This document shows positions 16,920 to 51,532 of a DNA stretch of 62,625 bases, in pieces; the first letter of the stretch is position 1, and each line of letters opens with the position of its first letter. The notes beneath the pieces were generated by a model, which was not told the origin of the DNA, searched no databases, and worked only from the letters and a program-made list of their open reading frames with translations. The translations under genes were made by a program, and so were the position numbers. Source of the stretch: a virus (taxonomy: Duplodnaviria; Caudoviricetes); the IMG/VR virus record IMGVR_UViG_3300035490_000346, positions 1 to 62,625 of that record; one strand, 5' to 3'.

Positions 16920-18698
16920 CTACCAGCTACTACCCTGCCCTAGCCTCGTGTCGGTCACCTGGTCGATGTCGCCCACGTTCGTCTCCTTGTCCATTATCTT
17001 GACGGGCAGGGCGCTGTAGTCAACGCCGGGCGGCGGCGGCGGCACGGTCTGGGTGATAGGCTCAATCCACTGGTGGATAGAGCGCCGGATGTCCCCGATG
17101 GACACGAACCAGCTAATCCTCGGGTACCAGCGGTTCTCTATCTGTATCTTGCCTCCACCGTCGTAGTACAGGATGTTCCACTCGCTGCCGTCATGGGCCT
17201 GGAACACGGCACCGGGCAGCATGTAGGCGAAGAAAATCTCGTCCCCCTCTATCGGCGACAGGGGGTTGGGGAGCTGCAAGGTGCCGGGGTTGGGCTTGAA
17301 CTGGGCGAACGTGCTGGTGCGCACGTCGTCCGGGTCCCCCACGATGGCCTGTAGCTCCTGGTCTGGGTTCGGGTGGTCTTCCTCGCACAGCACCCTGGCC
17401 GTCTTGGCCAGGTCGGCGGTCAAATCCTTGGCTTCCATTCCCATAGCCGTCCCTCTCTTAGTCTCGGCAACCAAGCTGCCGAGCAGGCCCACGCCTCTCT
17501 TATGGGTTGGATAGTCCCTATCCTCGCCATCCTTCCCCCCCTCCGCCTCCTGGATTCTCTCGTCCACGGCATCGTCGTCCAGCGACCTCAGGGCCCAGTT
17601 CTTGTCCTCAAGCCGTATCTCCACCACCTGGCCGGGGGACGGCCCTCCCCCCTGGGGTATCTTCCTGGGGTCCCCGTCCGTCAGGATGCACGGCAGGGCG
17701 AGCTGGAGGCGGGAGTGGCTGAAGGCGGCCACGCTCCCCCCCGTCTCCTCGAACACCTTCTTGGCCCTCTCCTGGAGCCAGTGGACTATCTTTACCGCCC
17801 GGTCGTAGAACTCCCTGTAGGGCCTGCCCCCAGGCGGGGCCTTCTCCATGCCCTGCTGGAGCGCCAGCATCTCCCCCTCGTGGTCCCGCACGTAGTCCCC
17901 GGACCACTTCCCCAGGTCCCAGGGGCGCAGGTTGGGGATAAGGTAGAGAGCGGCCCCGGTCGCCCTTGCCACCTCCCTGGCGGTCTCGGCCGCCCTGTCC
18001 AGGTCGGACGAGTATATCTCCTTTACATCCAGGCTCTTGAACTTCTTGGCGTCCTCCCTGGCCTCCCTCTTCCCCTCCTCGTCCAGGGGGACGTTGGCCC
18101 ATCCCCGGATGCGGCTGTCGAGGGAGTCCCCCGTGGTGGTGTTGTAGGGGGTATGCCCGTGCCGCCCGAAGTAGACCGTGGGCTTGCCCTCCCCGGACGC
18201 GGTCCGCCTGTGCGTGGAGAAGGCAGTCCTCCTGGCCTCCCTGATGGCCTCCTTTACCCCCCCGAGGGGGGTGCCCCCCCAGTCCATGATAACTCCCTTG
18301 CCCTCGTCGAACATATAGGCCATGTCCTCCCAGCCGGGGCCAGCGCTTGCCATGGGCCTCCACCCGTGCCAGAAGACCTCTATATCCCCAGGGGGCACGG
18401 GCCTCTCCACGAAGAACTCGCCTGCGTCCCCCCCGCTCCTGGCATCCCCCAGGCTGGGTGCCCCTACCCGCAGGATGACGGGCTGGTATGCCGGGATGGT
18501 CCCCCAGGTCTCCAGGTCGTGCCGGAATATAATCTCCCCGAAGTACCAGGCATCCTTCAGGGTGCTGGAGAAGAACACCTTGCCGAGCGAGCCTGCCCCG
18601 AGGTCCCCGCCCCAGTTCGTATCCTCCGAGGGCCTTAGCCCCTCCCTCTGGATTCCTGGGATGCGGCTGGCAGGGGTACAGTGGTATAGGTACCTCAT
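16920..18698 (-). CDS. Three-domain protein: ADP-ribosyltransferase-like + histidine phosphatase + unknown C-terminal domain
   Basis: YLYHCT...EGLRP...VFFS...AWYF...GEFFV (H-Y-E-type ART pattern); GRHGHT, YSSDLDRA.ETA, FSHS (phosphoglycerate mutase family). Confidence 0.75.
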   Translation of the reverse strand: MRYLYHCTPASRIPGIQREGLRPSEDTNWGGDLGAGSLGKVFFSSTLKDAWYFGEIIFRHDLETWGTIPAYQPVILRVGAPSLGDARSGGDAGEFFVERPVPPGDIEVFWHGWRPMASAGPGWEDMAYMFDEGKGVIMDWGGTPLGGVKEAIREARRTAFSTHRRTASGEGKPTVYFGRHGHTPYNTTTGDSLDSRIRGWANVPLDEEGKREAREDAKKFKSLDVKEIYSSDLDRAAETAREVARATGAALYLIPNLRPWDLGKWSGDYVRDHEGEMLALQQGMEKAPPGGRPYREFYDRAVKIVHWLQERAKKVFEETGGSVAAFSHSRLQLALPCILTDGDPRKIPQGGGPSPGQVVEIRLEDKNWALRSLDDDAVDERIQEAEGGKDGEDRDYPTHKRGVGLLGSLVAETKRGTAMGMEAKDLTADLAKTARVLCEEDHPNPDQELQAIVGDPDDVRTSTFAQFKPNPGTLQLPNPLSPIEGDEIFFAYMLPGAVFQAHDGSEWNILYYDGGGKIQIENRWYPRISWFVSIGDIRRSIHQWIEPITQTVPPPPPGVDYSALPVKIMDKETNVGDIDQVTDTRLGQGSSW

Positions 18699-18701
18699 GC
18701 C

Positions 18702-20021
18702 CTATGCCTCTATCCTCCCGAAGGTTACCGTCCTGCCGATGGGCACCTCGACCGTGTTCTCCCAGGGCTCGCGTCCGGGCAGGGTCTCCCTGGCATCGAA
18801 GAGCGGCTCCCCGTCCCCCCTCGGGTGGTGGGGGTCGAGGCCCTGGTCGGGGTTGTCCCTTACCACAGGGTTGTAGAGCGTGGGCAGGCCCGTGTTGATG
18901 GGGATAAGGTAGCGGGTGTCGCCGGGCTTCAGCAGCTCGGTGTCGAAGTCCTGCTGGAGGAGTATCCCCCTGGGCATCTTCGAGGTTACTCCGTGGATAA
19001 TCAGCCTGTCCCCGTTCCTCCTGACGATGAGGTCTCCGTCCTGCACGATGGGGGTGTTGGTCAGGTAGCTGCGGCTCTCCCTGGCTGCCTTTATGCCCCC
19101 TCCCTCGTCCAGCTCGCGCACCAGGGCGGTGTCCGGGGGCACGTACAGGATGTCGTAGGGGCCGTAGTACCCCCCCACTATCCCGACCTCGAAGCACGAC
19201 TTGCAGCCATGGCGGGGGGCACCGAGGCCGGACTCCGGGCGGGTGCAGCCGCAGGGCTCCCCCCTCGTCCGCCTGAACAGGATGTAGGCCGGCTCCCCTA
19301 CCTGCTCGAATATCCAGTGGTTGCGCCTTACCATCTCGGCGTACTCCCAGGTCATGCTGTCCACCTCCTGGGTGTTCACTACCCTCGTGCCGGGAGCGCC
19401 GGGCGCATGAAGCTCCCCGTGGTCCCCGACAGGCACGATGGTATAGAACTGCCGGACCATGGAGGTATAGATGTCCACGTAGTTCTCCAGGCGCTTGTAG
19501 GTCACCTCGAACTTCTGTATCCCGGAGTAGTCCACCACGCTGACATTCTCCGTGTAGACCTGGGCCTGGTCCGAGACCGCCCCTCCCCTCGGGAGGTCGT
19601 TGTCGGCCGGCAGGTAGACGGCATAGTCGAGGGGCACCACGGCTATGGGGCGTACCTCCACGGTCTCGTTGGAGGGGGTAGTCAGGACGACCCTGACGTC
19701 ATCGGGGCTGGTGGCCAGCTTTGGCCGTGCCGCCACGATGTCGGAGTAGGGTGCCTCGGGGAGCCGAAACCTCCACGTGCCCATCGTCCCCCTGTCAATC
19801 CAGTCCCCCGGCCTCACCTCGTAGGTCACCTCCTCCAGGGCCGCCTGGTCCCTCCAGAAGTGCCCCTTCCATGCCCCTCCCCGGTTCAGCCTCTTCCAGT
19901 TGCTCGGGTAGTCGTGCGCCCTGTAGATATTGTACCCTTTCGTTGCCTCGGGGTCGTCTATCCACCAGAGGTCGCGGCTCCCCACATAGCTGGAGTTAAG
20001 GACGAGAATCTCGTTTACCAT
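18702..20021 (-). CDS. Neck/head-closure-type virion protein with a Zn-binding segment
   Basis: GYNIYRA; GEP....R...G..C.C...C..CF..G..GGY; late motif upstream. Confidence 0.6.
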   Translation of the reverse strand: MVNEILVLNSSYVGSRDLWWIDDPEATKGYNIYRAHDYPSNWKRLNRGGAWKGHFWRDQAALEEVTYEVRPGDWIDRGTMGTWRFRLPEAPYSDIVAARPKLATSPDDVRVVLTTPSNETVEVRPIAVVPLDYAVYLPADNDLPRGGAVSDQAQVYTENVSVVDYSGIQKFEVTYKRLENYVDIYTSMVRQFYTIVPVGDHGELHAPGAPGTRVVNTQEVDSMTWEYAEMVRRNHWIFEQVGEPAYILFRRTRGEPCGCTRPESGLGAPRHGCKSCFEVGIVGGYYGPYDILYVPPDTALVRELDEGGGIKAARESRSYLTNTPIVQDGDLIVRRNGDRLIIHGVTSKMPRGILLQQDFDTELLKPGDTRYLIPINTGLPTLYNPVVRDNPDQGLDPHHPRGDGEPLFDARETLPGREPWENTVEVPIGRTVTFGRIEA

Positions 20022-20026
20022 TGCCC

Positions 20027-20051
20027 CCTACTGATAAAGGGGCTGGTAGTC
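20027..20051 (-). promoter_or_regulatory. Class L promoter motif
   Basis: GACTA-N8-TTTATCAGTAGG. Confidence 0.65.
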
Positions 20052-20063
20052 CTCCCGCCCGCA

Positions 20064-20111: not shown

Positions 20112-20115
20112 CAGC

Positions 20116-20379: not shown

Positions 20380-20389
20380 AAAAAAGATC

Positions 20390-21394
20390 ATGGCAAAAGC
20401 AGCAAGGACCGTAGCGGATATCGCCAGCCAGCTCAGCGCTGTGCTCAAACCGCAGCCCGCCAATGCCCCCCAGGCCGCCCCCAAAGAGAAGGTCTATGTC
20501 AGCAAGGCAACATGGACCGGCACTATCTCGGTCGCCCCTGGCCTTGCCTTTAAGGCGAAGCTCTACAAGGCCACCAACGACCCCACGGAAGGCTTCAAGT
20601 CCAACATGGTACACCAGTGCTCCGCCGCCGCCAATGACGGGACCGTGGAGTACTCGCAGCTAAAGCAGGGCAGCATGAAGTGCTCCGTGTGCGGCGTCGA
20701 TGTCCCCAAGGAGAGCGTCCAGAAGGGCATCCCCAATGGCGATGGCACCTTCACCATCATCAGCGATGACGAGAAGAAGTCCTGCATGGTCCGCTCCGAG
20801 GGCGAGATGCAGGTCCTCCGCCTTGTCCCCTCCCGCGATGTTGACCCTATCTACTTCGACGGCGCGTCCGAGTTCCTGGGGCCCGAGAAGGGTGCCGAGA
20901 AGTTCTATGTCGGGCTGCGCAAGATGCTCGGCAAGGGCCTTGTAGCCCTCGCCGTGAACGTCCAGCGCGGGCAGGAGTACATGCTGGTCCTCCGCCCCTA
21001 CGGCAAGGACGGCATCATCGCCAACTACATCCGCCGCGAGCACGAGGTCCGTGCGTGCGACAAGTTCCCCATGGTCGCCCTGAGCCAGCAGGAAGAGGGG
21101 CTCTTCTCGCAGCTAGCCGATGCCCTGACGGGCAGGTTCGACACCGAGGAGTTCCCTGACACCTACGCCAGCAACCTGCGCGGGCTTATCGTTGCCAAGC
21201 AGTCCGGCACCGCTGCCCCCGTGGTCGAGAAGCAGGCCCCCGCCGCCGTGGCGGTTGACCTGATGGCGGCCCTCCAGGCATCCATCAACGCCGCCAAGGC
21301 GAAGCAGGGCGGCCAGCCTGTCGCCGTTGCCGAGCAGCTTATCGCCGAGAAGGCCGCCGAGGCCAATACCGCTGCCAAGTTCGCTATCAACTAG
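20390..21394 (+). CDS. ku: Ku DNA end-binding protein
   Basis: WTGTIS...KLYKAT, C..CG..V....VQKG, VDPIYFD, LRPYG, D.Y...LR.LI.AK, VDLMAALQAS. Confidence 0.93.
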   Translation: MAKAARTVADIASQLSAVLKPQPANAPQAAPKEKVYVSKATWTGTISVAPGLAFKAKLYKATNDPTEGFKSNMVHQCSAAANDGTVEYSQLKQGSMKCSVCGVDVPKESVQKGIPNGDGTFTIISDDEKKSCMVRSEGEMQVLRLVPSRDVDPIYFDGASEFLGPEKGAEKFYVGLRKMLGKGLVALAVNVQRGQEYMLVLRPYGKDGIIANYIRREHEVRACDKFPMVALSQQEEGLFSQLADALTGRFDTEEFPDTYASNLRGLIVAKQSGTAAPVVEKQAPAAVAVDLMAALQASINAAKAKQGGQPVAVAEQLIAEKAAEANTAAKFAIN

Positions 21395-21399
21395 GAGCC

Positions 21400-22179
21400 G
21401 TGATGAAGGCAGAGCTACTGACTCCGATAGGTATACCGAGGCTGATGGCCCTTGCCAGGGACGACAACTACGGCTTCCAGCAGAAGCACGACGGGCACCG
21501 CACGCAGGTCGAGAAGCACGGCAGCACCATAAGGACCTACAACCGGGAGGGGGAGCCCACGCAGCCCCTCCCTCCCTCCCTGCAAGGCACCCTCCTGGCA
21601 AGCGGCATCCCGGACTTCTATATCGACACGGAGCGGGTGGGCAAGCGGCTCATCGTCCTGGACGTCGTCAGCCTCCTGGGCTCCAGCCTGAGGGTCCTGC
21701 CCTACAGCAGCCGCGAGCCTATCGCCCACCAGGCGTTCGACCATGCGGGGCCGGGGGTAGAGGTCATCGGCACCGTCCTGGGGACGGGGGCCAAGCTGGC
21801 CTTCCTGGAATGGCTCATCCGCACCAGGGCAGAGGGCGTGGTCGTGCGCGACATGAGGAAGCCCTACAGGGAAGGGGATGCCTGCCAGCACTTCAAGCTC
21901 AAGTTCGTCAAGGAGTGCGATGCCGTGGTCATAGGCCCCTCCCCGGACGGCAAGGACAGCGTCCGCATAGGGCTGTACCGGGAGGACGGTACCCTGCACG
22001 AGATATCCGGGGTAAGCCTCAGGAACAAGTTCCAGGCCCAGCCCGGCGAGGTCGTGACGGTGCGCTACCTGTGCGTCACCAGGGACCTGCACATACGGGA
22101 GCCCCATCTTGTCCGCAAGCGGGACGATAAGAGGGCCTCCTGCTGCTGGCTGAGCCAGCTTACCGAGGAGCAGATATGA
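21400..22179 (+). CDS. Minimal ATP-dependent DNA ligase (adenylation + OB domains)
   Basis: QKHDGHR (KxDG), IDTE, VLDV, EGVVVR, FKLK, then an OB-like tail with R.DK. Confidence 0.85.
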   Translation: MMKAELLTPIGIPRLMALARDDNYGFQQKHDGHRTQVEKHGSTIRTYNREGEPTQPLPPSLQGTLLASGIPDFYIDTERVGKRLIVLDVVSLLGSSLRVLPYSSREPIAHQAFDHAGPGVEVIGTVLGTGAKLAFLEWLIRTRAEGVVVRDMRKPYREGDACQHFKLKFVKECDAVVIGPSPDGKDSVRIGLYREDGTLHEISGVSLRNKFQAQPGEVVTVRYLCVTRDLHIREPHLVRKRDDKRASCCWLSQLTEEQI

Positions 22180-23817: not shown

Positions 23818-24528
23818 CTACCCCTTCTCTAACGGTTTACAAAGAGGGCATCCTGAACTAATCTGTCCTCGGTTAACATGCCAGCGTACATGCTGGGCCT
23901 TCTTTCCGCTTCGCTCATAGCCTAGCCGCCCCGCCCTCTGTTTGGTCTGCCTAGACCCGGCCTTGCCTCCCAGTACATGAGCCTCGTGGGACAGACGGGC
24001 GGACGCCTCCTCCTTGTGCGCATCCACCCACTTTTGGCAGCCTGCGACCCGCACAGATTCGTCTTGGAGGGCACGGACGACCCTTATCTTATCCTTGGTC
24101 TCGGGCGATGTGGGGTGCCCGCCCATAACCTTCCTCCAGTGCTCCCGGAAGCTCGGCTGTGCCCACCTTTGCTTTAGGGCCTTGGTCACTTTGGCTTTCG
24201 CCGCAGGTCCGTGAGGACCGGTGAATCCCTCCCCTCCCCGGCAGATATTATAGCCGTACTCGGGGTCCTGCGACCGTAAGAACCTGATGAAGTCTTTTTC
24301 TGTCCGGTCAAGTTCGGCTTTATTCTGGATGTCGGAGCGGAGGGCGTGGATGGACCACAGTGTAGCCTGAGGATACTTCCGCATCGCATTAAAGAGGTAT
24401 GATTGCCCACCTCGATGATGTCTGGCATCTGAAAACTTAGTCTGGAGATACCTCTTTAGGTTGTTGCCTTTGTGCTGGCCCACATAGTACTTTCCGGTTT
24501 TATGGTTGACAATTAGATAGATAAACAT
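23818..24528 (-). CDS. Free-standing GIY-YIG homing endonuclease
   Basis: MFIYLIVNHKTGKYYVGQ...R...E...GYN...GGEG; NUMOD-like tail; lower GC than flanks. Confidence 0.88.
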   Translation of the reverse strand: MFIYLIVNHKTGKYYVGQHKGNNLKRYLQTKFSDARHHRGGQSYLFNAMRKYPQATLWSIHALRSDIQNKAELDRTEKDFIRFLRSQDPEYGYNICRGGEGFTGPHGPAAKAKVTKALKQRWAQPSFREHWRKVMGGHPTSPETKDKIRVVRALQDESVRVAGCQKWVDAHKEEASARLSHEAHVLGGKAGSRQTKQRAGRLGYERSGKKAQHVRWHVNRGQISSGCPLCKPLEKG

Positions 24529-24533
24529 TTGAA

Positions 24534-24561
24534 CCTCCACATATAAATACTGTGGATAGTC
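24534..24561 (-). promoter_or_regulatory. Class L promoter inside an RBS-occluding hairpin
   Basis: GACTA-TCCACA-gtatttata-TGTGGA-GG. Confidence 0.7.
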
Positions 24562-24575
24562 CAAATTTCCTGTCA

Positions 24576-25499
24576 CTAACCCAAGAGCCAGCGCTGCTGC
24601 CTGAGCCCTACGGACATGGGCCGTATGGCGGTGATGAGGGGTGCCCACTCCTGGAACTCCTGCTGGTAGCTCTGCCCTAGGCTCTGGTAGAGCTGGGACT
24701 TGTTGATGTCCAGCGATACCCCGTTCAGCGAGTAGCTGAACTCATCGGCCGCCCACCGTGCGCCCTCGGCTGTCAGGCAGGAGGACGCTGCCCCGACCGC
24801 TGCGCACTTCCCCCAGTCCCTCGGCACGTTCTCCAAGGTAAAGCTCGTTAGGTTCTTCGGGTTCCAGGTGTTGAGCTTGGCTATGGCTATGTCCAGCATC
24901 CTCAGTATGGTGGGGTCGAGCCAGATATACCCCACCCTGGTCGTGTACCCCGCCACCACCCTGCCGGGCGTGGGGGGGCGGAAGTGGTAGTCCCTGTCCG
25001 GGTTGGTGTCCGAGAGCAGCTCTCTCACGTACATGATGGCCGGGGCATACTTGTTGGTCGTCACCGGCCGCTGGGCGATGATGGCGCTGGGTGCCTCGAA
25101 GGAGGAGCTTGCCGGGTCGATGGCCTGGACGATGAAGTCCTCGAACACCCTGTTCTCCGGCTGGCCGGGGTACTGCACGATATACCATACCAGGCGGAAT
25201 ATGCCCCGCCAGAGGGTAGGCACTACCATGGGGACGAAGTACGCCCCCTGGGAGCCCCGGCAGGGCACCATCTTGGGCGGGCTGGCCAGGACGAGGTCCT
25301 TCTCCGGCAGCACCAGCATGCTGTTGGGCTGCTCCAGGTCATAGTCGTATGCCCGCTGCCCCGCCAGGGGCACCTTGTCGGTGACCTGGAATATGGAAAA
25401 GGCGATGATGGCGGGGTCTATGAGCGCCCCGTTCGAGTCCCTTACCAGGATGCCGAGGTCTCCCGGCCCCAGCTTCTTCCCCTGCGTCAAGGTAGTCAT
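24576..25499 (-). CDS. Head-tail adaptor/neck protein
   Basis: VRELLSDTNPD; FSYSLNGVSL.I; late motif and GGGGAG before ATG25499. Confidence 0.6.
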   Translation of the reverse strand: MTTLTQGKKLGPGDLGILVRDSNGALIDPAIIAFSIFQVTDKVPLAGQRAYDYDLEQPNSMLVLPEKDLVLASPPKMVPCRGSQGAYFVPMVVPTLWRGIFRLVWYIVQYPGQPENRVFEDFIVQAIDPASSSFEAPSAIIAQRPVTTNKYAPAIMYVRELLSDTNPDRDYHFRPPTPGRVVAGYTTRVGYIWLDPTILRMLDIAIAKLNTWNPKNLTSFTLENVPRDWGKCAAVGAASSCLTAEGARWAADEFSYSLNGVSLDINKSQLYQSLGQSYQQEFQEWAPLITAIRPMSVGLRQQRWLLG

Positions 25500-26075: not shown

Positions 26076-29000
26076 ATGGCACTTTTCGGTTCCTACGCAC
26101 CCCCAGGGGTCTACACCTCGGTCGTCATCAGCGGAGCAGGCATACCGCTCTTCGGGAACGCCCGCATCCCTGTCATAATCGGGGAGGGCCAGGAGTTCTT
26201 CGAGCAGGACAACGTGGAGATTTTCCGTGGCTCCAGCGCGATAGCCCAGCCCTTGGTGGTGAACGAGAACATCTCGGACCAGATTACCGAGATTACCAAC
26301 GAGGCCCATACCACCTACTTCCCGGTGGTAGTGGGGGGCAATGCCGGTGGCACGGGGCCGGGGACATCCGCCATTACCGATAACCCGGCGTACCTCCAGG
26401 TGACTGACAACGGCATCCCGCTCACCGTCATCTCCCTCAAGGGGCAGACCGGTGCCTTCTACACGCAGGAGCTTATGGTGCCCGGCGACAACGTCGAGAT
26501 TACCTACTACTTCCTGCGCACCGACACTCCTATCACCAACGAGAACGAGTCTGACCAGGTCCCGAGCTATGCCGCATGGCAGGTCTACGATACCAATGGC
26601 AACTATGTGCCTGTCAGCGTCTCTCTCCCCGGCTCGACCGGCAGCAATGTCACGGTAAACGTCTTTGACGACACCCTGTCCTCCCCTGCGGGCACCGGCG
26701 TGCTCGACACGCAGGCCATCGGCGGGGCGGGCACGGATGCCATCACCTTTGACATCGCCAAGGTAGGGGGCGGGAAGCGCACCCTCGCGGACTTCTACGC
26801 CCTCCTCCAGATGAACATCCCGACCCTGGACGCGGGAACCCTGGTCGCCCTGGCCCCGGTCCTGGCAGGCTCCCCCCCGGTCCTGAGCGACATGTACCCG
26901 GCCCTCTACCAGCTCCAGGGCGGGTTCGGCCCCAGCACCAACACGGTGTTCAAGGTCGAGCATGTCCCCATCGTGGACGGCAGCGGCGGCGGCGTGGTCA
27001 CGACCGACCCGACCAAGGTCACGGCAACGGTCAATGGCAGCACCACCGTCAACCCGGTCGGGGCAGTGGACGGCCTGCATGGCCTCGTGACCCTGACCCA
27101 CCCCGTGGAGTCAGGCAGCACGCTTACCCTGAGCTACTACACCAACACCTACCAGAACACCTACGACATCATCCCGGCGAACAACGTGTCGTCCGTCATA
27201 CAGGTAGGGCTGGGCCCCAACCGGACGGACTTCATCGAGGATACTGACTATACCCTCGGCACGGACGGCAACGGGAACGACACCATCAACTGGGGCGCAA
27301 GCTCCGCGACAACGGTCGGCACCTCCACCACCGGCTATACCCCCTTCGGGCCGACCCAGATACTCACGACCGTAGTGGACGAGAGGGTGTTCCTGCGCCT
27401 CTGCACGGGGGCCAGCAGCGGCTCCAACCTAGTCTTCACGCTCCCGGACAACCCGACTGACGGCACCGGCCAGGGCAACGGCCCTGGGACCGTCACCGAT
27501 GACCCGACCAAGATACAGGTCTATGTCGGCGTCAACCCCGTGGAGGCCCTGGAGAACTACCTGCCCGGCGAGTCCGAGCGGGTCATAGCCCTCTCCGGCA
27601 GCACGAGGCACTTCACCCTCTACAAGCCCCCCCTACTGGGCCAGAACGTCTACGCCTCCTACTGGCGCAGCACCCTGAACGACCACAGCTACACGGTCAA
27701 GGTCTCCAACCCCGGCATCTCGGGGCAGGGCACCTACACCATCAACGACGAGGTCGGGAGGGTGCTCCCGGTCGTATCGTTCAATGCCGGGGCAAGCTCC
27801 GTCCACCAGAGCGGCGAGTTCGCCCAGCAGGGCATCATCTGGCCCTACAATTTCCCCGACCTGTACGACTCCCCAGGCGAGGTGGACGAGACTGTCACCC
27901 TGACCTTCCAGGACGACGGGTATACCCGTGACGTGGACCCAGGGGCGCAGTCCTACCTCACGACCCAGGGCATCCTGTTCTTCTGCACCACGCCCGGAGT
28001 CGGCGGCAATGCCATAAGCGTGGCGTTCAACACCACCGGGACCTATGGAATCACCAAGGTCGGCAACGCCATCACCTTCAACGGCGTCACCACCACCAAC
28101 CAGGTCATCACCCTGGCCGGTTCGGGCATCACCACCACCTTCGGCACCGTCCTGGCCCAGCTTGTCACCGTGGGCACCATCAGCACGGCGGCGGCCGTCC
28201 ACCTGGACGGCGGCGTTGACCCGGCCGACCCCCAGCCATACTCCCTCCGCTACCTCGTCACCTCCTCCAGCCCGGACGGGTCCAGCGGCGAGGGCTACCT
28301 CGACCAGACCTACATCGACGAGAACACAGGGCTCAAGTTCACCATCGTCAGCCCGCAGGATGCCGTCCCGGACTACGGGTGGCAGAGCGTCCCGGTCCCC
28401 TACACCTTCGAGCCGGGCGACTACCTGGTGTTCCAGGTCAGCAGCGAGCAGGTCCGCTACTCGGGGTCTACCTACTTCCCGTACAGCGATGCCCAGCCCA
28501 ACAACCTCGTCTGCATCGCCGGGCTCAACACGACGGTGGTCACCACCTTCGGTGCCAACACCGGCGACACCGCCATCATCCAGACCTTCAACAACTCCGG
28601 CAACCAGCCGGCCATCGGCGAGTACTACTACGTCTCCTTCCAGACCGAGAAGACCCCCGCCGACATGGCCATCACGCTGTACGACAGCGCCAGCAAGGCC
28701 TACTCGGCCTACGGGCAGCCCACTACCGTCAACCGCCTCAGCCTGGGCGTCCAGCTCATGACCGAGAACGGGGCGCAGCAGTTCGGCTGCATCCAGGTCC
28801 CGAAGCAGCCGGGGCTAGGCACTGCCACGGACGCCAGCTTCATAGCGGCCATCCAGACACTCGCCACGGCGCTCCCAGGCACCACCCAGAAGGCCAATGT
28901 CATCGTCCCGCTGAGCACCAGCACCTCGGTCCACCAGTTCCTCAGCCGCTTCCTCATCACCCAGGCGAACGTGAGGAACAAGGGGGAGGCCATCGGGTTC

Positions 29001-41938: not shown

Positions 41939-42937
41939 ATGGCAAACCTTTCCCGCACCCAGCAGCAGACGGCAATGCTAGGCCAACTGCTGAAGACGGC
42001 CGGCGGACGGCAGAAGCTCGCCGCCAGCCTCGGACCGTCCCTGCGCAGGCGTCGTGACTACATGAGCATCGCCCGCAAGGCGCTCATGGTCGAGACCCTG
42101 CCGGACGGCGCTCTTCCCATCTACGACAAGGAGTTCGACATCGCGGCCCAGACCGTTTCCGGCCCTGCCGGTGGGTCCTTTGTCGAGGCCTTCGTGGTCG
42201 GCGAAGAGGGCGGAGACATCGTTCGGGTCACCAAGCCGAAGCGTGTCACCGTCCCGACGTTCGAGATTGTCTCTAACCCCATGATTCCAATCACCCAGAT
42301 TAAGGAGCGCAGGTTCGACCTGGTCGCTCGTTCCCTTAACCTGGCGAAGGCAGAGGTCGGGGCAGCCGAGGACGGCTACGTCTTCGGGCTGTTCGATGCC
42401 GTTGCCGCCGCAGCCAACGTACAGGTCGCAGCGGACAACGCCACCAAGGCCGGCAGCGGCCCGTTCGACCCTGTCTACAATGGGGACATCGCAATCAGCC
42501 CGCCCGTTGACATCAACTCGATGGCCGACGGCTTCGGGCAGGTGCAGCGGCACGACCTCTCCGTGGCCTTCTGTTTCTTCAACCCGAGGGACTACACGGA
42601 CCTGCTGAAGTGGACCCAGCAGAACATCGACCGCGAGACGCAGCGCAAGCTGCTGAAGACCGGCGTCATGGGCTACCTGTGGGGGGCAACGCTCCTCCAG
42701 TCCCGTAAGGTCGGCTTCGGCTGCGTGTACCTCCTGGCGGACGCCGAGTTCCTGGGCGTCATCCCGGAGCGTATCCCGCTGACCGTCATGTCCGCCGACA
42801 GGCCGGACCTCAGGCAGATTGGGTTCAGCATCTTCGAGAACCTGGGCTTCCTGGTGTTCAACCCCTCCGGCGTGCAGCGCCTCACCATAACCGGCCGCTT
42901 CCAGATGTGGAACGGCCAGAACCAGGGCGAGAACTAA
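41939..42937 (+). CDS. Major capsid protein (HK97 fold)
   Basis: R..DY..IARKAL.VE.LP.GA.P.YDK, VP.FEI.SNP, G.LWGA, GF...E..G; strong terminator follows. Confidence 0.88.
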   Translation: MANLSRTQQQTAMLGQLLKTAGGRQKLAASLGPSLRRRRDYMSIARKALMVETLPDGALPIYDKEFDIAAQTVSGPAGGSFVEAFVVGEEGGDIVRVTKPKRVTVPTFEIVSNPMIPITQIKERRFDLVARSLNLAKAEVGAAEDGYVFGLFDAVAAAANVQVAADNATKAGSGPFDPVYNGDIAISPPVDINSMADGFGQVQRHDLSVAFCFFNPRDYTDLLKWTQQNIDRETQRKLLKTGVMGYLWGATLLQSRKVGFGCVYLLADAEFLGVIPERIPLTVMSADRPDLRQIGFSIFENLGFLVFNPSGVQRLTITGRFQMWNGQNQGEN

Positions 42938-44993: not shown

Positions 44994-47900
44994 ATGCCTG
45001 TCCAGGTCCCGACCATCGTGCAGTCCGTGTTCACGAGGGTGGACAATGCCCTGTCGGCCACCCTTAGCCTGCCCTATGCCTGCGTTACGGGCAACTCCAC
45101 CCTTCTCATGGGGCTGGGGGGCGACAGCTTCTTCCCGGTAAGGACCCAAGTGCCCCCCGGGCCCCCATGGGCTACCTGGGTCGGACTTGCCTTCGACTAC
45201 TCTATCGCACCGTACGGGACCTTCGGACAGGTCCTCTCGTGGAGCCATCTCGTGGCCGACGGCGACGACTCCCAGCACGTGGAGGTAGTGACCTTCTCGC
45301 GCCTCTGGCCAGCGATAAGCTGGGGGCTCTTCGAGATTACGGGCGACATCCGGCTTGCGACCATCACTACCTCGATATTGCCAGACGTGTACGGCGGCCA
45401 CAGCCACGACCCCAACTGCTGGAACCCCTCTGCCTCCTACTCTGTCGGTAACGTGGTTAGCTGGATAGCCTATTCCTGGACCTGCACCGTCCCGAACATC
45501 GACCAGGAACCGTATGCCGGGTCTAGCTACTGGGCCCGTGGGGGGTCGAGCGCCAGCACCACCCTTGCGACCGCTGAGATATCCAATCCCGGCGAGTCGC
45601 TCTGCATCGGGGGGTTCACCTGGAAGAGCGCCGACACCAGCACCAACCCCTCCCCCTCTCCCTATGTGTGGGTCAACCGCTCCAACGGCGACCCGGCCGG
45701 GGACAACTCCATCTTCTTCGCCGCCACTGGCAACCCCCTGCCCGATACCGCCGTCTCCGTCACCCTTCCCAACGCCGCCCACTGGGTGACCGGCTGGGTC
45801 CTCATCTCCGTCTACTCCTCGTCCACTACAGTCATCACCAGCAACAGCCCCTCCATATCCGGGACCTCCGTGACGTTCACGGCCACCGTCACCACCACCC
45901 AGGGGGGAGACCCTACGGGGACCGTCACCTTCAGCGACAGCCTGGGGAGCTTCAGCCCCCAGACGGTGCCCCTCTCCGGGGGGCAGGCCCAGTTCAGCAC
46001 CTCTGCCCTCTCGGTGGATTCCCATACCATCACGGCGGCCTACAACGGGGACAGCAGCCATGCCAGCAGCCTCGGCACGGTAGCCCAGAGCGTGCAGTAC
46101 GCTACCCCCTCCGTGGCCGTCCTGAGCAGCCTCAACCCGTCCCTCACCGGCGACCCCGTCACCTTTACCGTGAACGTCACGGGGGGGTACGGGACGCCGA
46201 CCGGGAGCGTGCTGCTGTCCGACGACCTGGGGAGCTTCAGCCCCCAGACCTTGCCCCTCGTCCTGGGCTCCGCCCAGTATACGGCCCCCTCCCTGGGCCT
46301 GGACTACCATAACATATCCGCCGCCTACAGCGGGGACGGGGTGTATGCCCCCCTGGCCGCCGTCCTGGTGCAGCAGGTCGTCCCCAAGTACGACCCCGTG
46401 GTAGCGATGACCAGCAGCAACGACCCCCAGTCCTTCGGGCAGGAGTTCACCCTTACCATAACGGTAGGGCCCTCGTCCGGGGGGCCGGTCCCGACCGGGA
46501 CGGTAGGCCTCACGGACACCGTCCTGGGAGACCTCGGCACCTATCCCCTTGTCTCCGGGGCGGCTACCTACACCATGGACCTCCTCTCCCCCTGGGCGGT
46601 GGGCAGCCACATCGTCACGGCAGCATACGGCGGGGACAGCAGCTACAACACGGGCACGGCGTCCCTTGTCGAGCTTATAACCGTGGCCTCCAGCCTCGTG
46701 TACGCCGACCTCCCCGGCTTCGCCCTGGTGGCGTCCTACTCCCCCGAGGGGGACGAGGGCCTCCCTGCCTGGGCATCCTTCTCTGCCAGCCCCGACCCGG
46801 CCGACCAGGGCCAGGAGGTCTACCTGCTGTGGACCAGCGCCAATATCGCCTCCGTCAGGATATACGGCAGCAACGGGACGGACTCCCTGGACACGGGGGT
46901 GCTCCAGGCCTCCGGCCCCGGCCTCTATGCCGTGGCCAGCGGCTTCCAGCACAGCATCACCCTCTCCTGCCTTGCCTATGACGCCAGCGGCAACACGGTG
47001 GCCTCCCAGCCCTTGACCGTCACCGTCATCTCGGCCCCGGAGCTGGACAGCCTCTCCCCCCCGTCTGCCACCGAGGGCTCTACCGCGCAAACCCTGGACC
47101 TGATGGGGAGCTACTTCACGCCGGACTGCACGGCGACCTACAACGGCACCCCGCACACCGTATCCTACATAGGCCCCACGGAGCTGTCTATCCCGCTGAC
47201 GGACGGGGACCAGGCGACCCAGGGCAGCTATCCCGTGGTCGTGACCAATAGCATAGGCTCTTCCGACCCTGTCGATTTCCTGGTCACCTCCGTCTCCCCC
47301 TACCCGGACCTCCCGCCCTTCGTCCAGAGCAATATGGCCGGGAGCCCCCAGGTGCCCAACCCGGTCACTGTCCCCTACCTCCAGGACACCACGAACGGCA
47401 ACTTCCTGCTGTGCTTTGTCGCCAGCCAGGATGCCTCCGCCCCCCCTATCTCCGACACCCTCGGGAGCCCCTGGACCCTGGTCGGCAGCCACCACGGGCT
47501 CGGGTCTAACTATCCCTATGCCTATGTGTTCGCGGTCTATAACAGCGACACGTACGGCGGTCCCGACACGGTCCAGGTCGGGGCCAGCGACGGGGTGCCC
47601 CGCATGGTCCAGATATGGGAGTTCCAGGTAGGCTATGCGCTTGACACTATCACCTGGAACGACACTGCGGTAAACGGCAGCGGGAGCGTATCGACGGGCA
47701 CTACAACGATGACCCATGACTACGACCTGGTACTGACCCTCTTCGTAGACGAGGACCAGGGTGCCAGGACTGTCCCGATACCCGGCACCAGCTTCCAGGG
47801 ATGGAGCGGGCAGGAGTACCAGGCACCGTCGCCGGCCGGCAGCATGCAGGTGTTCGAGCCCTGCCCTGGGACCACGATAGGCAGTTGCGGGGACGCCCCG

Positions 47901-48143
47901 CACTTCCTGACGGCCTGGCAGGCGGGCAAGCAGTACTACGCCGGGAACGAGGTCGTGGACGCAGGCAGCCATTGGCTGTGCGCCTACGACAACATAGGCT
48001 CGGAGCCCAGCATAGTGAACCCCAACTGGCAGTTGGTCGGGAGCGGCTCCGGGGTGTACTCGGACGAGCGCACCGTAAGCGGGCTCTCCGGCACTGCCAA
48101 CTTCGTCTCGGCCATCATCGCGTTCCGGCCCTTCTTCGTATAG
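44994..48143 (+). CDS. Fibre/receptor-binding protein with three Big_3 Ig-like repeats, an IPT/TIG-like domain and two CBM5/12-like modules
   Basis: VTFT.TV...PTG.V...H.ITAAY.GD three times; W.P...Y..G.VV....W.C twice. Confidence 0.8.
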   Translation: MPVQVPTIVQSVFTRVDNALSATLSLPYACVTGNSTLLMGLGGDSFFPVRTQVPPGPPWATWVGLAFDYSIAPYGTFGQVLSWSHLVADGDDSQHVEVVTFSRLWPAISWGLFEITGDIRLATITTSILPDVYGGHSHDPNCWNPSASYSVGNVVSWIAYSWTCTVPNIDQEPYAGSSYWARGGSSASTTLATAEISNPGESLCIGGFTWKSADTSTNPSPSPYVWVNRSNGDPAGDNSIFFAATGNPLPDTAVSVTLPNAAHWVTGWVLISVYSSSTTVITSNSPSISGTSVTFTATVTTTQGGDPTGTVTFSDSLGSFSPQTVPLSGGQAQFSTSALSVDSHTITAAYNGDSSHASSLGTVAQSVQYATPSVAVLSSLNPSLTGDPVTFTVNVTGGYGTPTGSVLLSDDLGSFSPQTLPLVLGSAQYTAPSLGLDYHNISAAYSGDGVYAPLAAVLVQQVVPKYDPVVAMTSSNDPQSFGQEFTLTITVGPSSGGPVPTGTVGLTDTVLGDLGTYPLVSGAATYTMDLLSPWAVGSHIVTAAYGGDSSYNTGTASLVELITVASSLVYADLPGFALVASYSPEGDEGLPAWASFSASPDPADQGQEVYLLWTSANIASVRIYGSNGTDSLDTGVLQASGPGLYAVASGFQHSITLSCLAYDASGNTVASQPLTVTVISAPELDSLSPPSATEGSTAQTLDLMGSYFTPDCTATYNGTPHTVSYIGPTELSIPLTDGDQATQGSYPVVVTNSIGSSDPVDFLVTSVSPYPDLPPFVQSNMAGSPQVPNPVTVPYLQDTTNGNFLLCFVASQDASAPPISDTLGSPWTLVGSHHGLGSNYPYAYVFAVYNSDTYGGPDTVQVGASDGVPRMVQIWEFQVGYALDTITWNDTAVNGSGSVSTGTTTMTHDYDLVLTLFVDEDQGARTVPIPGTSFQGWSGQEYQAPSPAGSMQVFEPCPGTTIGSCGDAPHFLTAWQAGKQYYAGNEVVDAGSHWLCAYDNIGSEPSIVNPNWQLVGSGSGVYSDERTVSGLSGTANFVSAIIAFRPFFV

Positions 48144-48463: not shown

Positions 48464-48476
48464 GGGAGGCAAGCCG

Positions 48477-49856
48477 ATGCTCACCTGCAAGGCGGACCCC
48501 CGCCTGCTTGTCCCAGGCAGGCTCGTCGGCTCTACCGACGGCCAGCCGTGGGTCGTCACCTCCAGCGTCAGGACCAAGGACGGCACCTCCGTAAGGCTCG
48601 CGGACCTCATGGGAGAGCCCGCCCCTGCGGGGCTGCGCTTCGACCCCATATCCCTCCGCCTGTCCAGGTTCGCCGCCATGATGCGGCGGCTCGCCTACAA
48701 CAAGGAGTTCGATGCCTATGTAAAGGACTCCATCAGGGAGGCCGGTCTGCCCGTTGACCAGAGCATGAACTGGGCCAAGTACCTCTACACCATCATGGTG
48801 CCCCGCCTGGACACCCAGGACGACGAGCTTATCGACGAGGCAATCCACTTCATCATCATCCGCGAGCTGGTAGAGCGCAAGAAGCTCAGCCCCCAGAACC
48901 CCCACGGGTTCTACCAGACCATAGGCGACTTCAGGTGGGGGGGCAAGAACCACCCCGGCCAGACAGAGGCGCTCCCCCTGGAGAAGCAGGTCACGGAGTT
49001 CCTCAAGAAGTCCTTCATATTCAGGGCGGACGAGGCAAACAAGTACCTCAAGAGGGTGCTCAAGGGCCTGAGGAAGGGCATAGGGGAGGAGGACCTTGTC
49101 CCCCTGTCCCCCGGCGGCGTGGGGGAGGAGGAGGCCTACTCCCCGATAGACTACCTGGAGCAGCCCGACACGGGCAGGGAGTTCCGCGAGGCCGAGGAGG
49201 TCGCCGACCTGGGCGACTACAGCCTCCGCCGCAAGAACGCCCTGGTGGGCAAGTTCACCGAGGGCCTGTACCACTGGCTCCTGGAGCAGAAGAGGACGCT
49301 GGAGGGCAGGAAGAGGTACCCTTACGCCCCTACCCAGTACGTCCGCCTCCTGAGCCTGCTGTACAGCCATGCCAAGGAGTACGGCACCAAGCCCTCCCTG
49401 GCCGAGATAGAGGGCAAGTGGAAGACCCTCCAGCAGGAGGTAGGCAGCCACAAGCGCCTCGGCCACGAGGACTTCGTCAAGCTCTTCACCCTGTTCCCCG
49501 AGGCCCTTGAGACATACGTCAGGACCGTCCTCCACCTCCCGCCCGAGGAGCACCACATCCTCCCCAACATCGTCCGCCTCCTGGTAAGGGAGGGGGAGCA
49601 AAGGCGTCAGAAGAGGCTGGAGGAGTCCGACAAGGACAGGGAGTCCCGCAGGGGCGGGCCCGAGCCCGAGGAGCAGCAGCCCCCTGCCGAGGCCGCCCCC
49701 GAGGGCAAGACCTCCGCCAAGCAGATAGAGATGCCCCGCTGCGCTACCTGCCAGACGGGGAAGGAGGTCAGCAGGTGCCCAGGCTGCGAGGATAGCTACT
49801 GCTCCCTGTGCGTCAAGGACCACTTCGCCAACAACCCAGGGCACGAAAGGACCTAG
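48477..49856 (+). CDS. Late protein with a central divergent sigma70/ECF-like region and a C-terminal Cys/His zinc finger
   Basis: Region-2-like, acidic linker and region-4-like segments, judged by eye; CxxC..CxxC..CxxC..H. Confidence 0.5.
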   Translation: MLTCKADPRLLVPGRLVGSTDGQPWVVTSSVRTKDGTSVRLADLMGEPAPAGLRFDPISLRLSRFAAMMRRLAYNKEFDAYVKDSIREAGLPVDQSMNWAKYLYTIMVPRLDTQDDELIDEAIHFIIIRELVERKKLSPQNPHGFYQTIGDFRWGGKNHPGQTEALPLEKQVTEFLKKSFIFRADEANKYLKRVLKGLRKGIGEEDLVPLSPGGVGEEEAYSPIDYLEQPDTGREFREAEEVADLGDYSLRRKNALVGKFTEGLYHWLLEQKRTLEGRKRYPYAPTQYVRLLSLLYSHAKEYGTKPSLAEIEGKWKTLQQEVGSHKRLGHEDFVKLFTLFPEALETYVRTVLHLPPEEHHILPNIVRLLVREGEQRRQKRLEESDKDRESRRGGPEPEEQQPPAEAAPEGKTSAKQIEMPRCATCQTGKEVSRCPGCEDSYCSLCVKDHFANNPGHERT

Positions 49857-49857
49857 C

Positions 49858-50754
49858 ATGGCCGACGTAGAGGTAAAGAACGAGGGGACCGTAGTCCTCC
49901 TTATCCCCATGAGCAGCGAGGGGAAGGCCTGGATTGACGAGAACCTCCAGCTTGAGAGCTGGCAGTGGTACGGCAACGCCGCCGCCATCGAGGCACGCTA
50001 TGTTGACCCGATAGTCCAGGGCATGCAGGACGACGGCCTGGAGGTAGAGGGCACCACGAGGGTCATACCCGAGGAGTCCGGGCTCACCCCCGAGGAGGAG
50101 GAAGGCATGGTCAGGAGGGGACAGCTCCCCCCCATGGAACGGCGCTCCTCCAAGACAGGGGCCGTCCCCGCCTCCCCCCTGCTGGCAAGGCCTGACTCCC
50201 AGGCGAACCTGGACATGGAGGGGATGGAGGAGCGCACGGGAGGGCCGATGGCGAGGGGGGACCAGGGGGGCGAGGAGCCCCTGCTCACGCCCGCCATGCC
50301 TACCACCCTCCAAGAGCTGCCCAACCCGGAGATGCGCGTCCACCCTATCTATACCCGCACGTCCGGGCTGGCCTTCGCGTCCCCCTTCCTGCGCCAGCCG
50401 GCCAGGGGAGGCTACTGCGATGCCTGCGGCCGTCCCGAGGCCCAGTGCGCGTGCAGCCCCGAGGACTGCGACCTGACAAGGAAGAGGGGGGCAGAGACGG
50501 ACTGGGAGGCGGGGGAGAGCTTCGCCTACGGCACCAAGCTGCGGGAGGCCGTGCAGTACATCGTCGGGGAGGCGCACAAGAAGGGGACGAAGGAGTCCTA
50601 CCTGGCAGGGATGAACAAGCTGTATGGAGTCCGGGCCCTCCTCATCTTCACCGGGTTCAACGAGACGAGGCCCCTGCTGGCAATCATGAACGAGGCACAC
50701 CGGCTCTGGACGATGGCAGAGAGCCTGGAGGAGCGGACTACGGAAACCGTTTAG
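49858..50754 (+). CDS. Mosaic probable head protein
   Basis: KTG/KRGA-delimited segments; SPLL tag; CxxC finger. Confidence 0.65.
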   Translation: MADVEVKNEGTVVLLIPMSSEGKAWIDENLQLESWQWYGNAAAIEARYVDPIVQGMQDDGLEVEGTTRVIPEESGLTPEEEEGMVRRGQLPPMERRSSKTGAVPASPLLARPDSQANLDMEGMEERTGGPMARGDQGGEEPLLTPAMPTTLQELPNPEMRVHPIYTRTSGLAFASPFLRQPARGGYCDACGRPEAQCACSPEDCDLTRKRGAETDWEAGESFAYGTKLREAVQYIVGEAHKKGTKESYLAGMNKLYGVRALLIFTGFNETRPLLAIMNEAHRLWTMAESLEERTTETV

Positions 50755-50782
50755 GAGCCGCCAAGCGGCGGCGGAGGAGAAC

Positions 50783-51532
50783 ATGGCAAAGACGTCGAGG
50801 GAAGTCCTGAGGGAGAAGATAGCGGCGATAGGCGAGGACAGGAAGGCCCAGGAGTACGGCCTCCTGCGCGAGGTGGCCGCCAGGGAGCCCCAGAAGGTAG
50901 GGGACGCCCTTGGCGAGCTGGCGCATATCGCCAGCGCATGGGGGGCCTCCGCGGCCGCCCTGCGCGAGAACCTGGACCTGACGGACGGCCCGCACGCGGC
51001 GTCCCTGAGGGCCAGGACGGCGGCCAGGAAGAAGTATGCCGCCGAGTTCCGGCGCATCGCCGAGGCAGCGCCCGAGCAGGTCGAGGAGGCCATTGTCGAG
51101 CTTTACCGCTCCATTGACGACATCGCCGCAGGGCTGGAGAACCTGGCGTCCCACCTGGGGATAGACCTCGCTGGCGGGGAGGAGGAGCTTCCGCCTGCTG
51201 ACGGCACGGGAGACGGGGACGAGGGCCTGCACGGCGAGATGCCCATGGGGGGCGGCGAGCCGCCCGAGGGCGAGGAGCCCCCGGCCGAGGGCCTGGACCT
51301 GGAGGGCAAGGAGGCGGCGGCCGGCGATGCCTTCGTGACCGACAGGGACGAGGAGGGTGCCCCGAAGCCCCCAGACAAGGCAGAGGGCCGGTCCACGCCG
51401 TCCAGGGTGAAGATACAGGCCACTGGCGGGGGAGGGTTCGTGACGGACAGGGACCCCCAGGCGGAGCCGAAGCCGGTCGAGAAGGCCGAGATTCCCGTCT
51501 CGCAGGGCGAGGCGGCCATAAGGCAGAGGTAG
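50783..51532 (+). CDS. Acidic helical probable head/core protein with two FVTDRD motifs
   Basis: GGAGGAG RBS. Confidence 0.7.
   Translation: MAKTSREVLREKIAAIGEDRKAQEYGLLREVAAREPQKVGDALGELAHIASAWGASAAALRENLDLTDGPHAASLRARTAARKKYAAEFRRIAEAAPEQVEEAIVELYRSIDDIAAGLENLASHLGIDLAGGEEELPPADGTGDGDEGLHGEMPMGGGEPPEGEEPPAEGLDLEGKEAAAGDAFVTDRDEEGAPKPPDKAEGRSTPSRVKIQATGGGGFVTDRDPQAEPKPVEKAEIPVSQGEAAIRQR

Follow-up and report, generated by a model that had tools for sequence, protein, structure and literature searches.

What are the short basic-x-Ala/Gly sites that recur in the late proteins of a tailed phage, and what reads them? The question is raised by a 62,625-nucleotide stretch of phage DNA (positions 1 to 62,625 of IMG/VR record IMGVR_UViG_3300035490_000346, hereafter the window), in which a preliminary description listed such sites in several open reading frames (ORFs) between positions 16920 and 51532. 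All of the listed sites are found in the sequence. They had been taken for the junctions of cargo polyproteins that a protease encoded at 37768 would cut inside the capsid. The comparisons described here favor a different reading, to which we assign a probability of roughly 0.55. Lys/Arg-x-Ala, often followed by Ser, would be the recognition motif of the prohead protease, which would act on itself, on the scaffold, and probably on the N terminus of the capsid protein; five modular protein families, named by their window genes (30236, 34095, 48477, 49858, and 50783), would be co-substrates in the prohead whose leaders are clipped.

From its sequence, the block is assigned to the tail-head morphogenesis region of a soil jumbo myophage of the Tunturi_5/phage G lineage, because its PHROG matches, its nearest relatives, and its Tunturi_5-like gene order all point that way. 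The GC content of the window is 64%. The nearest isolate in the phage collection is Tunturiibacter phage Tunturi_5 (309 kb; capsid protein 68% and protease 59% identical), followed by the uncultured 485-kb phage LR745208 (48 and 42%) and, more distantly, by Bacillus/Lysinibacillus phage G (34 and 26%). At least 150 IMG/VR contigs carry a homologous capsid gene, of which 80 were kept, the largest of 463 kb; L-numbers below denote related loci. Genes in the window follow the order of Tunturi_5 gp326-gp334, namely sheath, a small gene, "DNA ejection protein," "virion structural protein," a small gene, protease, a large acidic protein, a small gene, and capsid, both quoted annotations being predictions in the Tunturi_5 record. 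In the window, the protease gene lies directly upstream of the scaffold gene, which is followed by the 41292 gene and then by the capsid gene. Tunturi_5 gp326-gp334 and phage G gp19-gp27 include true homologs of the protease, scaffold, and capsid proteins, in the same order and with the same excess of K-x-A. Unlike the window, Tunturi_5 has no large gene, and no 34095 equivalent, between gp329 and its protease gene, and the C-terminal domain of the 16920 protein exists there as a separate protein, gp323.

The excess is narrower than the K/R-x-A/G form first proposed. A late set of 20 window proteins contains 178 [KR]x[AG] sites, where within-protein shuffling gives 152.9+-11.1 (200 shuffles, 2 of which reach the observed count; z-score 2.3); the 26 other window proteins, which form the comparison set, contain 123 against 118.8. 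Among the late proteins R-x-[AG] is found 81 times with 80.4 expected, and K-x-A 60 times with 38.8 expected from shuffles, the K-x-A excess being concentrated in the protease (6 versus 1.5, p 0.005) and the scaffold (18 versus 9.5, p 0.009). The tripeptide KTA (9 versus 2.1) ranks sixth among all tripeptides and is not significant by itself after 8000 tests. R-x-[AG] and K-x-G show no enrichment either within the window or across the family of its scaffold; the wider protease family is enriched in R-x-A and in N-terminal K-x-G. K/R-x-A, commonly with S next, is a better form of the motif than K/R-x-A/G. Enrichment over background, which the preliminary description had made a condition of its proposal, is borne out for K-x-A in the late proteins; the signal of the broad motif is weak, with no contribution from Arg or Gly within the window. 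Of the proposed form itself the K/R-x-A portion stands, the Gly alternative is less apt, and S commonly follows the Ala.

The scaffold-like protein (38670-40955, plus strand; 761 amino acids), which carries 18 K-x-A sites, is so named from its position between the protease and capsid genes and its Pro/Ala/Glu-rich composition; Pfam and PHROG searches gave no family match for it. Over 13 diverse homologs (37-63% identity), K-x-A ranks first of 400 a-x-b patterns (255 versus 127.3), with an approximately twofold excess in every homolog and 13-25 copies in each. Lys-to-Ala spacings of 1, 2, 3, 4, and 5 occur at 0.84, 2.00, 1.01, 1.05, and 0.82 times expectation, i,i+2 being the sole enriched spacing, and A-x-K, K-x-G, K-x-S, and R-x-A stand at 1.09, 0.87, 0.94, and 1.18 times expectation. 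The excess is therefore not an effect of composition. It is found in Tunturi_5 gp332 (16 versus 5.6) and extends to the distant scaffolds of LR745208 (16 versus 8.2) and phage G (gp21, 7 versus 2.8). Eight of the 18 pairs (residues 14, 261, 300, 305, 311, 389, 394, and 623) recur in 70% or more of 14 diverse homologs, compared with 0 of 11 K-A, 0 of 12 K-xx-A, and 0 of 7 K-xxx-A pairs, and the middle residue is conserved in just 32%. The five scaffold sites singled out earlier (RKVA, SKVA, GKQA, AKTA, and VKTA) all lie within this conserved set. The heptapeptide KTAQPVP, reported to be common to two proteins, indeed occurs at residue 394 of the scaffold and at residue 47 of the 30236 protein (30374-30394); the two coding segments agree at 19 of 21 bases, with two synonymous third-position differences and unrelated flanks, and are therefore not the outcome of a recent duplication.

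Near the scaffold C terminus lies a candidate site that resembles a herpesvirus maturation site, Ala735-Ser736 (40872-40877, plus strand), 26 residues from the end. The Ala-Ser column aligns in 27 of 32 homologs, 16-26 residues before the end, with a D-I-A-x-A-L-F-G tail after it, and reads TKVA-S in Tunturi_5 and AKVA-S in LR745208. Passages of a paper on pseudorabies virus (PRV) describe self-release of the protease at an R-site (YLQA-T) and cleavage of the scaffold, 37 residues short of its end, at an M-site (VQA-S), the latter releasing the scaffold from the capsid protein (PMC4498786). By analogy, we infer that the cut falls directly after the Ala, because the [KR]-x-A-S sites and the scaffold Ala-Ser are placed like the R- and M-sites of PRV. 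As a separate observation, most scaffold homologs (L013, L023, L030, L052, L055, L064, L072, L078, and others) contain Cys-rich insertions with C-x-x-C or CKGC repeats in the alignment region of window residues ~375-392, which adjoin the upstream side of a conserved K-x-A-[DEQ] island; the window scaffold has none at that point.

The gene at 37768-38670 (plus strand; 300 amino acids) encodes a prohead serine protease, as had been proposed: it matches PHROG 18299, "head maturation protease," with an expectation value (E) of 3.4e-15, and is 59% identical to Tunturi_5 gp331, which bears the same annotation, and 26% identical to phage G gp19. In 50 diverse homologs (32-52% identity), His110 and Ser168 are invariant and His56 is nearly so. 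An AlphaFold 2 (AF2) model has a mean predicted local distance difference test (pLDDT) score of 79.7, with values above 90 in a core of residues ~45-250 and low confidence at the ends, the tail (residues 258-300) being disordered. In a Foldseek search the top PDB match of this model is T4 gp21 (5jbl; E 0.01, probability 0.72, template modeling (TM) score 0.38 by target), followed by a coherent set of proteases from Kaposi's sarcoma-associated herpesvirus, varicella-zoster virus, PRV, human cytomegalovirus, and herpes simplex virus (E 0.07-0.5). These weak fold matches suggest that the protein is most likely a Ser/His enzyme of assemblin-like fold. Within its core, Cys178, Cys181, and Cys192 are invariant and His194 is nearly invariant in the 50 homologs (38299-38352, residues 178-194), and this Cys/His cluster is a probable zinc-binding insertion; T4 gp21 and the herpesvirus proteases are not known to have a comparable cluster. 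The family is large, a phmmer search of 1.84 billion representatives giving 1189 relatives at E<=1e-3 and 248 at E<=1e-30, and many of them carry long N-terminal or C-terminal extensions, the latter of 450-1000 residues.

Sites in the protease itself are conserved on both sides of the core. Lys5-Thr-Ala7 (37780-37788, plus strand), a candidate self-cleavage site in the low-confidence N-terminal arm, has K in 34 and R in 10 of the 50 homologs at position 5 and A in 33, G in 8, and S in 4 at position 7, position 6 being variable; its equivalents are KYA in LR745208 and KIA in phage G gp19. Lys273-Ala-Ala275-Ser276 (38584-38595, plus strand), which resembles a release site, lies in the disordered tail approximately 20 residues past the core and is conserved amid variable flanks (position 273, K in 35 and R in 11; position 275, A in 48 of 50; position 276, S in 31). 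Both reach phage G, and a third site, Lys43-Thr-Ala45, is conserved in close relatives alone. Within 45 residues past the core, [KR]xA is present in 140 of 148 family representatives at a median offset of 19, and [KR]xAS in 69 of 148, against 6.8+-2.3 in shuffles. At these post-core sites Ser follows the Ala 3.3 times as often as expected, the middle position favors Thr, Tyr, and Val, and the position ahead of the basic residue favors hydrophobic ones. Among 149 representatives at <=50% identity, the excess is small in the core (K-x-A 1.27x). It is larger in the N-terminal extensions (K-x-A 2.14x, R-x-A 2.02x), where spacing 4 is also raised (K..A 2.06x, R..A 1.7x), and in the C-terminal extensions (K-x-A 1.80x, R-x-A 1.76x), where adjacent spacings are near 1. 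The distant proteases of LR745208 (7 versus 2.7) and phage G (gp19, 8 versus 2.4) also have the K-x-A excess. In the major capsid protein (41939-42937, plus strand; 332 amino acids; PHROG 2522 "major head protein," E 2.9e-40), the corresponding candidate is Lys19-Thr-Ala21 (41993-42001), which reads KSA in Tunturi_5 and KTA in LR745208.

The modular genes sit between the tail genes, represented by the sheath (26076-29669, plus strand; PHROG 2839, E 3.2e-26), and the head genes, or downstream of the capsid gene. Pooled over complete homologs, in counts that are not independent of one another, K-x-A exceeds expectation in the families of 34095 (124/69.0, 1.80x), 30236 (58/36.1, 1.61x), 48477 (35/21.8, 1.61x), 49858 (14/7.2, 1.94x), and 50783 (49/24.3, 2.01x). 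Other K..A spacings in these pooled homologs are near 1, and two neighbors downstream of the capsid gene lack a pooled excess (43714, 0.92x; 43031, 1.23x). The 30236 protein (30236-31732, plus strand; 498 amino acids) is mostly disordered. Its leader (residues 1-49) is followed by a Pro/Ala linker, by middle modules that can be swapped, and by a C-terminal helical domain that is conserved. In its family of seven sequences, the 12-residue N terminus MKSNLIARRKKA is invariant at Lys10, Lys11, and Ala12. It is followed by a block, DPWVTDRD..AK.PE.AEVPRLAA.SKTA-QP, in which Lys47 and Ala49 are invariant, and then by the linker, of variable length. The middle modules differ among relatives, some of which carry another module in place of the zinc-ribbon module of the window, and the helical domain occurs also in Tunturi_5 gp328 (annotated "DNA ejection protein"), which itself contains 19 K-x-A sites versus 8.8 expected. 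An AF2 model built from the seven sequences has a pLDDT of 37.8, too poor for a fold search or firm domain limits.

The 34095 protein (34095-37724, plus strand; 1209 amino acids) contains many CxxC pairs and a TPR region (TPR_16, E 4.4e-9). Its leader of ~69 residues (34095-34301) is conserved and ends in T-K-H-G, with K-x-[GA] at the end in 9 of 10 sequences and unrelated sequence beyond; a leader ahead of a variable body, in the manner of the T4 internal proteins (IP) and Alt, is present in both the 30236 and 34095 families. The remainder is a mosaic of homology blocks, one zinc-ribbon module of which recurs in ORFs of more than 1100 residues in relatives. Of 23 block boundaries, 13 have a [KR]x[AG] site within +-6 residues (random 7.9+-2.0, P 0.009), and K-x-A alone has no association with these boundaries. 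The 34095 protein also contains three copies of a junction motif, [LF]T-x-x-D-[RK]-x-x-L-x-x-M-G-I-x-A (35412-35470, 36789-36850, and 37014-37070; residues ~440-460, 899-918, and 974-992). The copies lie at or near the starts or ends of homology blocks, two of them at block starts; the motif is often followed in relatives by S/T-K-x-A, and in L035 and L038 it joins an N-terminal extension to the scaffold. Assignment of this motif to the SAP/HeH type of DNA-binding motifs was dropped, as Pfam gave no support even at E 5.

Three consecutive plus-strand genes downstream (48477-49856, 49858-50754, and 50783-51532) encode modules that are fused in relatives. An ORF of 1332 residues in L078 begins 48477-like and ends 50783-like, one of 720 residues in L054 is 49858-like and then 50783-like, and one of 636 residues in L026 is also a fusion; ORFs of more than 1100 residues in L044, L055, and L068 join a 48477-like N terminus to the 34095 zinc-ribbon module. 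The SKTG site of the 49858 protein is RTA, KTA, or KRA in 3 of 3 homologs, the KTS of the 48477 protein lies upstream of its C-terminal zinc domain in 3 of 6, and the KEA of the 50783 protein, whose Tunturi_5 homolog is annotated "virion structural protein," lies 6-9 residues ahead of its VTDRD tail. That tail belongs to a shared motif, [FW]VTDRD-x(3-5)-[AP]K-x-P-x-KAE-[VI]P, present once near the N terminus of the 30236 protein (30290-30340, residues ~19-35) and, in the form VTDRD...KP.EKAE, twice at the C terminus of the 50783 protein (51332-51500, residues ~183-240). It recurs in both families at 10 or more related loci, mostly with K-x-A (or V-x-A) 6-9 residues upstream, and from its sequence context may be a docking or targeting element. 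A further linear motif, [KR]HT[VI]-x-P-[ED]-[LI]-P-x(3-4)-[YF]H[ML], occurs in the linkers of fused ORFs of L022, L026, L054, and L078, and residues ~150-170 of the window 49858 protein contain a degenerate version of it, LQELPNPEMRVHPIYT.

In the maturation pathway that these patterns suggest, the protease would first free itself by cutting at Lys5-x-Ala7 in its N-terminal arm and at Lys273-x-Ala275-Ser past its core. It would then cut the scaffold at the many conserved K-x-A sites, and the Ala-Ser cut 26 residues from the scaffold C terminus would detach the scaffold from the shell. In a third step, the capsid protein would possibly be trimmed at Lys19-Thr-Ala21. Members of the fast-evolving 30236, 34095, 48477, 49858, and 50783 families, with leaders or tails ending in K-x-A/G, would serve as co-substrates inside the prohead; their leaders would be clipped, and their bodies would be either degraded like the scaffold or retained as internal head proteins.

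Several points weigh against this pathway. None of the protease fold matches reaches E <= 0.001, and its sequence gives 0 matches at E <= 1 in the PDB and none in Pfam. L045 and L052 carry Met in place of Lys at the C-terminal protease site, and in the clade of the window the main C-terminal site of the scaffold has V, I, or T, not K, three residues before the cut. In the capsid protein of phage G (gp27), ETE occupies the position of Lys19-Thr-Ala21, and among close relatives the whole capsid N terminus is invariant, so that the K-T-A site there says little. None of the six other window proteins is individually enriched in K-x-A (observed/expected: 30236, 9/7.0; 34095, 8/4.8; 48477, 1/1.9; 49858, 0/0.8; 50783, 3/2.0; 16920, 3/2.0), and in the pooled counts of the modular families some fused ORFs were counted in two sets. 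The boundary test on the 34095 protein depends on tolerance, with 7 versus 5.2 within +-3 residues (P 0.23). Finally, the literature searched yielded no proteomic or biochemical datum for the lineage.

The alternative that was proposed initially, in which true polyproteins of small effector domains are packaged in the capsid, the 37768 protease cuts all of their K/R-x-A/G junctions, and ejection into the host follows, now appears unlikely. In its favor, genes that are separate in the window are single ORFs in relatives, and vice versa, all five modular families have a pooled K-x-A excess, and motif sites fall at junctions at the end of the 34095 leader (9 of 10), at the 49858 SKTG site (3 of 3), and within +-6 residues of 34095 block boundaries. 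T4 packages an ADP-ribosyltransferase enzyme, Alt, and the protein encoded at 16920-18698 (minus strand) offers a partial parallel, as it comprises an N-terminal domain, a histidine phosphatase (residues 175-375; His_Phos_1, E 2.1e-29), and a C-terminal domain. For the N-terminal domain (residues 1-170), the nearest named atlas clusters are Arr/DarT/Tox-ART-HYD1, with a score of 0.89, under the 0.9 bar, and the structure matches are RNA 2'-phosphotransferase-like clusters (TM ~0.46); an ADP-ribosyltransferase-like assignment is a lead only. The closest relative, in L095, lacks this domain and starts MEGKPT, 2-3 residues past the HRRTA-S of the window, in keeping with the first proposed junction. 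The second proposed junction of the 16920 protein does not fit: its C-terminal domain (residues 412-567) corresponds, at 47% identity, to Tunturi_5 gp323, a stand-alone protein, and the AKTA site lies 20 residues inside this gp323-like domain. The gene, moreover, belongs to the row of neck and tail genes and not to that of head genes, gp323 itself being located between a "minor tail protein" and a "tail terminator."

The modular families bear on the same alternative. Pfam and PHROG searches recognized no effector or enzyme family in the 30236, 34095, 48477, 49858, and 50783 proteins, just the TPR region and weak zinc-finger matches; the "small effector domains" attributed to them are thus not supported by these searches, and among the proposed cargo proteins enzyme domains are confined to 16920. 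Fused relatives retain an in-frame Met exactly at the start of the 50783-like module, so that internal initiation is possible instead of cutting. The single-ORF fusions in L078, L054, and L026 speak for polyproteins, and the separate genes 48477, 49858, and 50783 in the window speak against them. Swapping of domains at the sites, suggested as a check in the preliminary description, is seen to the extent that modules are fused, split, and re-assorted among relatives and that some junctions coincide with sites, the 16920 AKTA site not being one of them. Separation of domains by sites in the 34095 protein likewise holds for [KR]x[AG] at +-6 residues, but not at +-3 residues or for K-x-A alone. 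Ejection into the host, which this alternative would entail, is unsupported.

Given the spacing controls, a docking role and a composition artifact are less likely than cleavage by the prohead protease. As docking motifs, the [KR]-x-A(-S) islands would bind the capsid protein, the portal, or each other and would recruit the protease, scaffold, and accessory proteins into the prohead without being cut. Conservation and spacing specificity do establish that the islands are functional, not that they are cut; they occur in disordered arms and tails, as is typical of docking peptides; and the VTDRD...KP.EKAE.P motif beside K-x-A in the 30236 and 50783 families resembles a binding element. The 13-25 copies per scaffold, however, at about twice expectation in every homolog, suit degradation sites better, the sites are placed like those at which related proteases release themselves and their scaffolds, and the 3.3-fold Ser preference after Ala resembles a scissile Ala-Ser, all of which makes pure docking improbable. 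Least credible is chance K-x-A in Lys/Ala-rich, low-complexity proteins of a high-GC phage, inflated by homologs in what would be ordinary multi-domain structural proteins: the broad motif reaches a z-score of 2.3 only, KTA fails multiple-test correction, the window cargo proteins are individually at expectation, and pooled tests reuse related sequences, yet local composition would also lift K-A, K-xx-A, and A-x-K, which stay at 0.8-1.1, so that the spacing controls largely refute it, and the excess is found also in AT-rich phage G and, outside the core, in protease representatives at <=50% identity, with islands that are position-specific in variable flanks.

Cleavage by the prohead protease, the preferred reading, can be set beside known maturation systems. 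The herpesvirus assemblin-scaffold pair (UL26/UL26.5) is alike in that herpesvirus proteases are among the best, although weak, structural matches of the window protease and in the presence of a small-residue-Ser site past the protease core and another near the scaffold C terminus. It differs in several respects. The window protease and scaffold are separate genes, although many relatives have the C-terminal extensions noted above; the residue three before the cut is Lys/Arg here and aliphatic in herpesviruses; and the phage system has many internal scaffold sites and the Cys/His cluster inserted in the protease core. What would be new here is the basic-x-Ala-Ser specificity and the herpesvirus-like layout of sites; the kind of system is already known.

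In T4, gp21 cuts after Glu at Leu/Ile-x-Glu, and internal proteins carry an N-terminal capsid-targeting peptide ending in the protease motif. Likeness to the T4 gp21/gp22 system and its internal proteins lies in the PDB fold match to gp21, in a scaffold riddled with the motif, and in the short conserved 30236 N-terminal leader MKSNLIARRKKA, which ends in the motif. In contrast, no sequence similarity was detected, and a Glu motif is not at the top here: L-x-E is found 101 times versus 72.1 in the 13 scaffolds (1.4x), and A-x-E, S-x-E, and G-x-E are outside their 20 most enriched patterns. The phiKZ head protease motif is A/S/G-x-E, and to our knowledge the giant-phage prohead proteases of mapped specificity (T4, phiKZ, and SPN3US) all cut after Glu. 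The heads of phiKZ (gp175) and SPN3US (gp245) are alike in being those of jumbo phages with many accessory proteins, although their proteases are unrelated in sequence to the window protease. Passages of a study of SPN3US report 14 mapped cleavage sites in nine proteins, with cleavage after A-x-E, N-terminal propeptides of 20-254 residues that are cut at several places, and a C-terminal propeptide in the protease (PMC10052503). Enrichment of a Glu-before-cut motif like those of T4, phiKZ, and SPN3US was not found in the 13 scaffolds. A literature search, outside which the phage G structure paper and all supplements fall, returned work on T4, phiKZ, and SPN3US alone and no published cleavage motif for the Tunturi_5/phage G lineage. 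A term search of the Tunturi paper gave no occurrence of protease or mass spectrometry. In a multi-omics paper on phage G, the 12 of 15 matching passages covered are silent on head-protein cleavage, and they conflict on virion detection of the head maturation protease (PMC12484599).

Were the specificity as proposed, a large and mostly uncultured basic-x-Ala-Ser lineage would add sequence-level support for a link between phage and herpesvirus capsid maturation, a link that would be strengthened because the sites sit at the positions of herpesvirus release and maturation sites. With the motif as a simple rule, the termini of mature head proteins could also be predicted in hundreds of metagenomic jumbo phages, and conserved leaders on re-assorting modules would flag an internal or ejected proteome otherwise invisible to annotation. 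A bolder version is doubtful: a lineage of >1000 representative clusters would use a herpesvirus-like Ala-Ser specificity, and the same signal, placed after portable leaders, would load swappable modules, among them zinc-ribbon arrays and the ADP-ribosyltransferase-like and phosphatase enzyme, into the capsid and trim them there so that they are delivered along with the DNA.

Other genes of the window lie apart from these questions. Between the tail-gene rows, a Ku homolog (PF02735, E 4.7e-17) is directly followed by a protein with an ATP-dependent DNA ligase domain (PF01068, E 1.1e-8), forming an end-joining pair at 20390-22179. The 356-residue ORF at 32840-33910 has a junk-like middle with low GC at third codon positions (GC3) and overlaps an ORF in another frame (33453-33677, GC3 0.85); the region is probably two or three small genes, not one. 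The 43714 protein has a weak SWIM match, and the 1049-residue protein of 44994-48143, with three Big_3_5 Ig-like domains (E 5.3e-40), is probably a fiber or adhesin. An ORF between the structural genes at 23818-24648 (minus strand) matches GIY-YIG weakly (E 7e-4, which does not pass the Pfam cut-off) and may encode a homing endonuclease; an LR745208 ORF just upstream of the protease gene of that phage (L083, 6287-7147) resembles it by eye.

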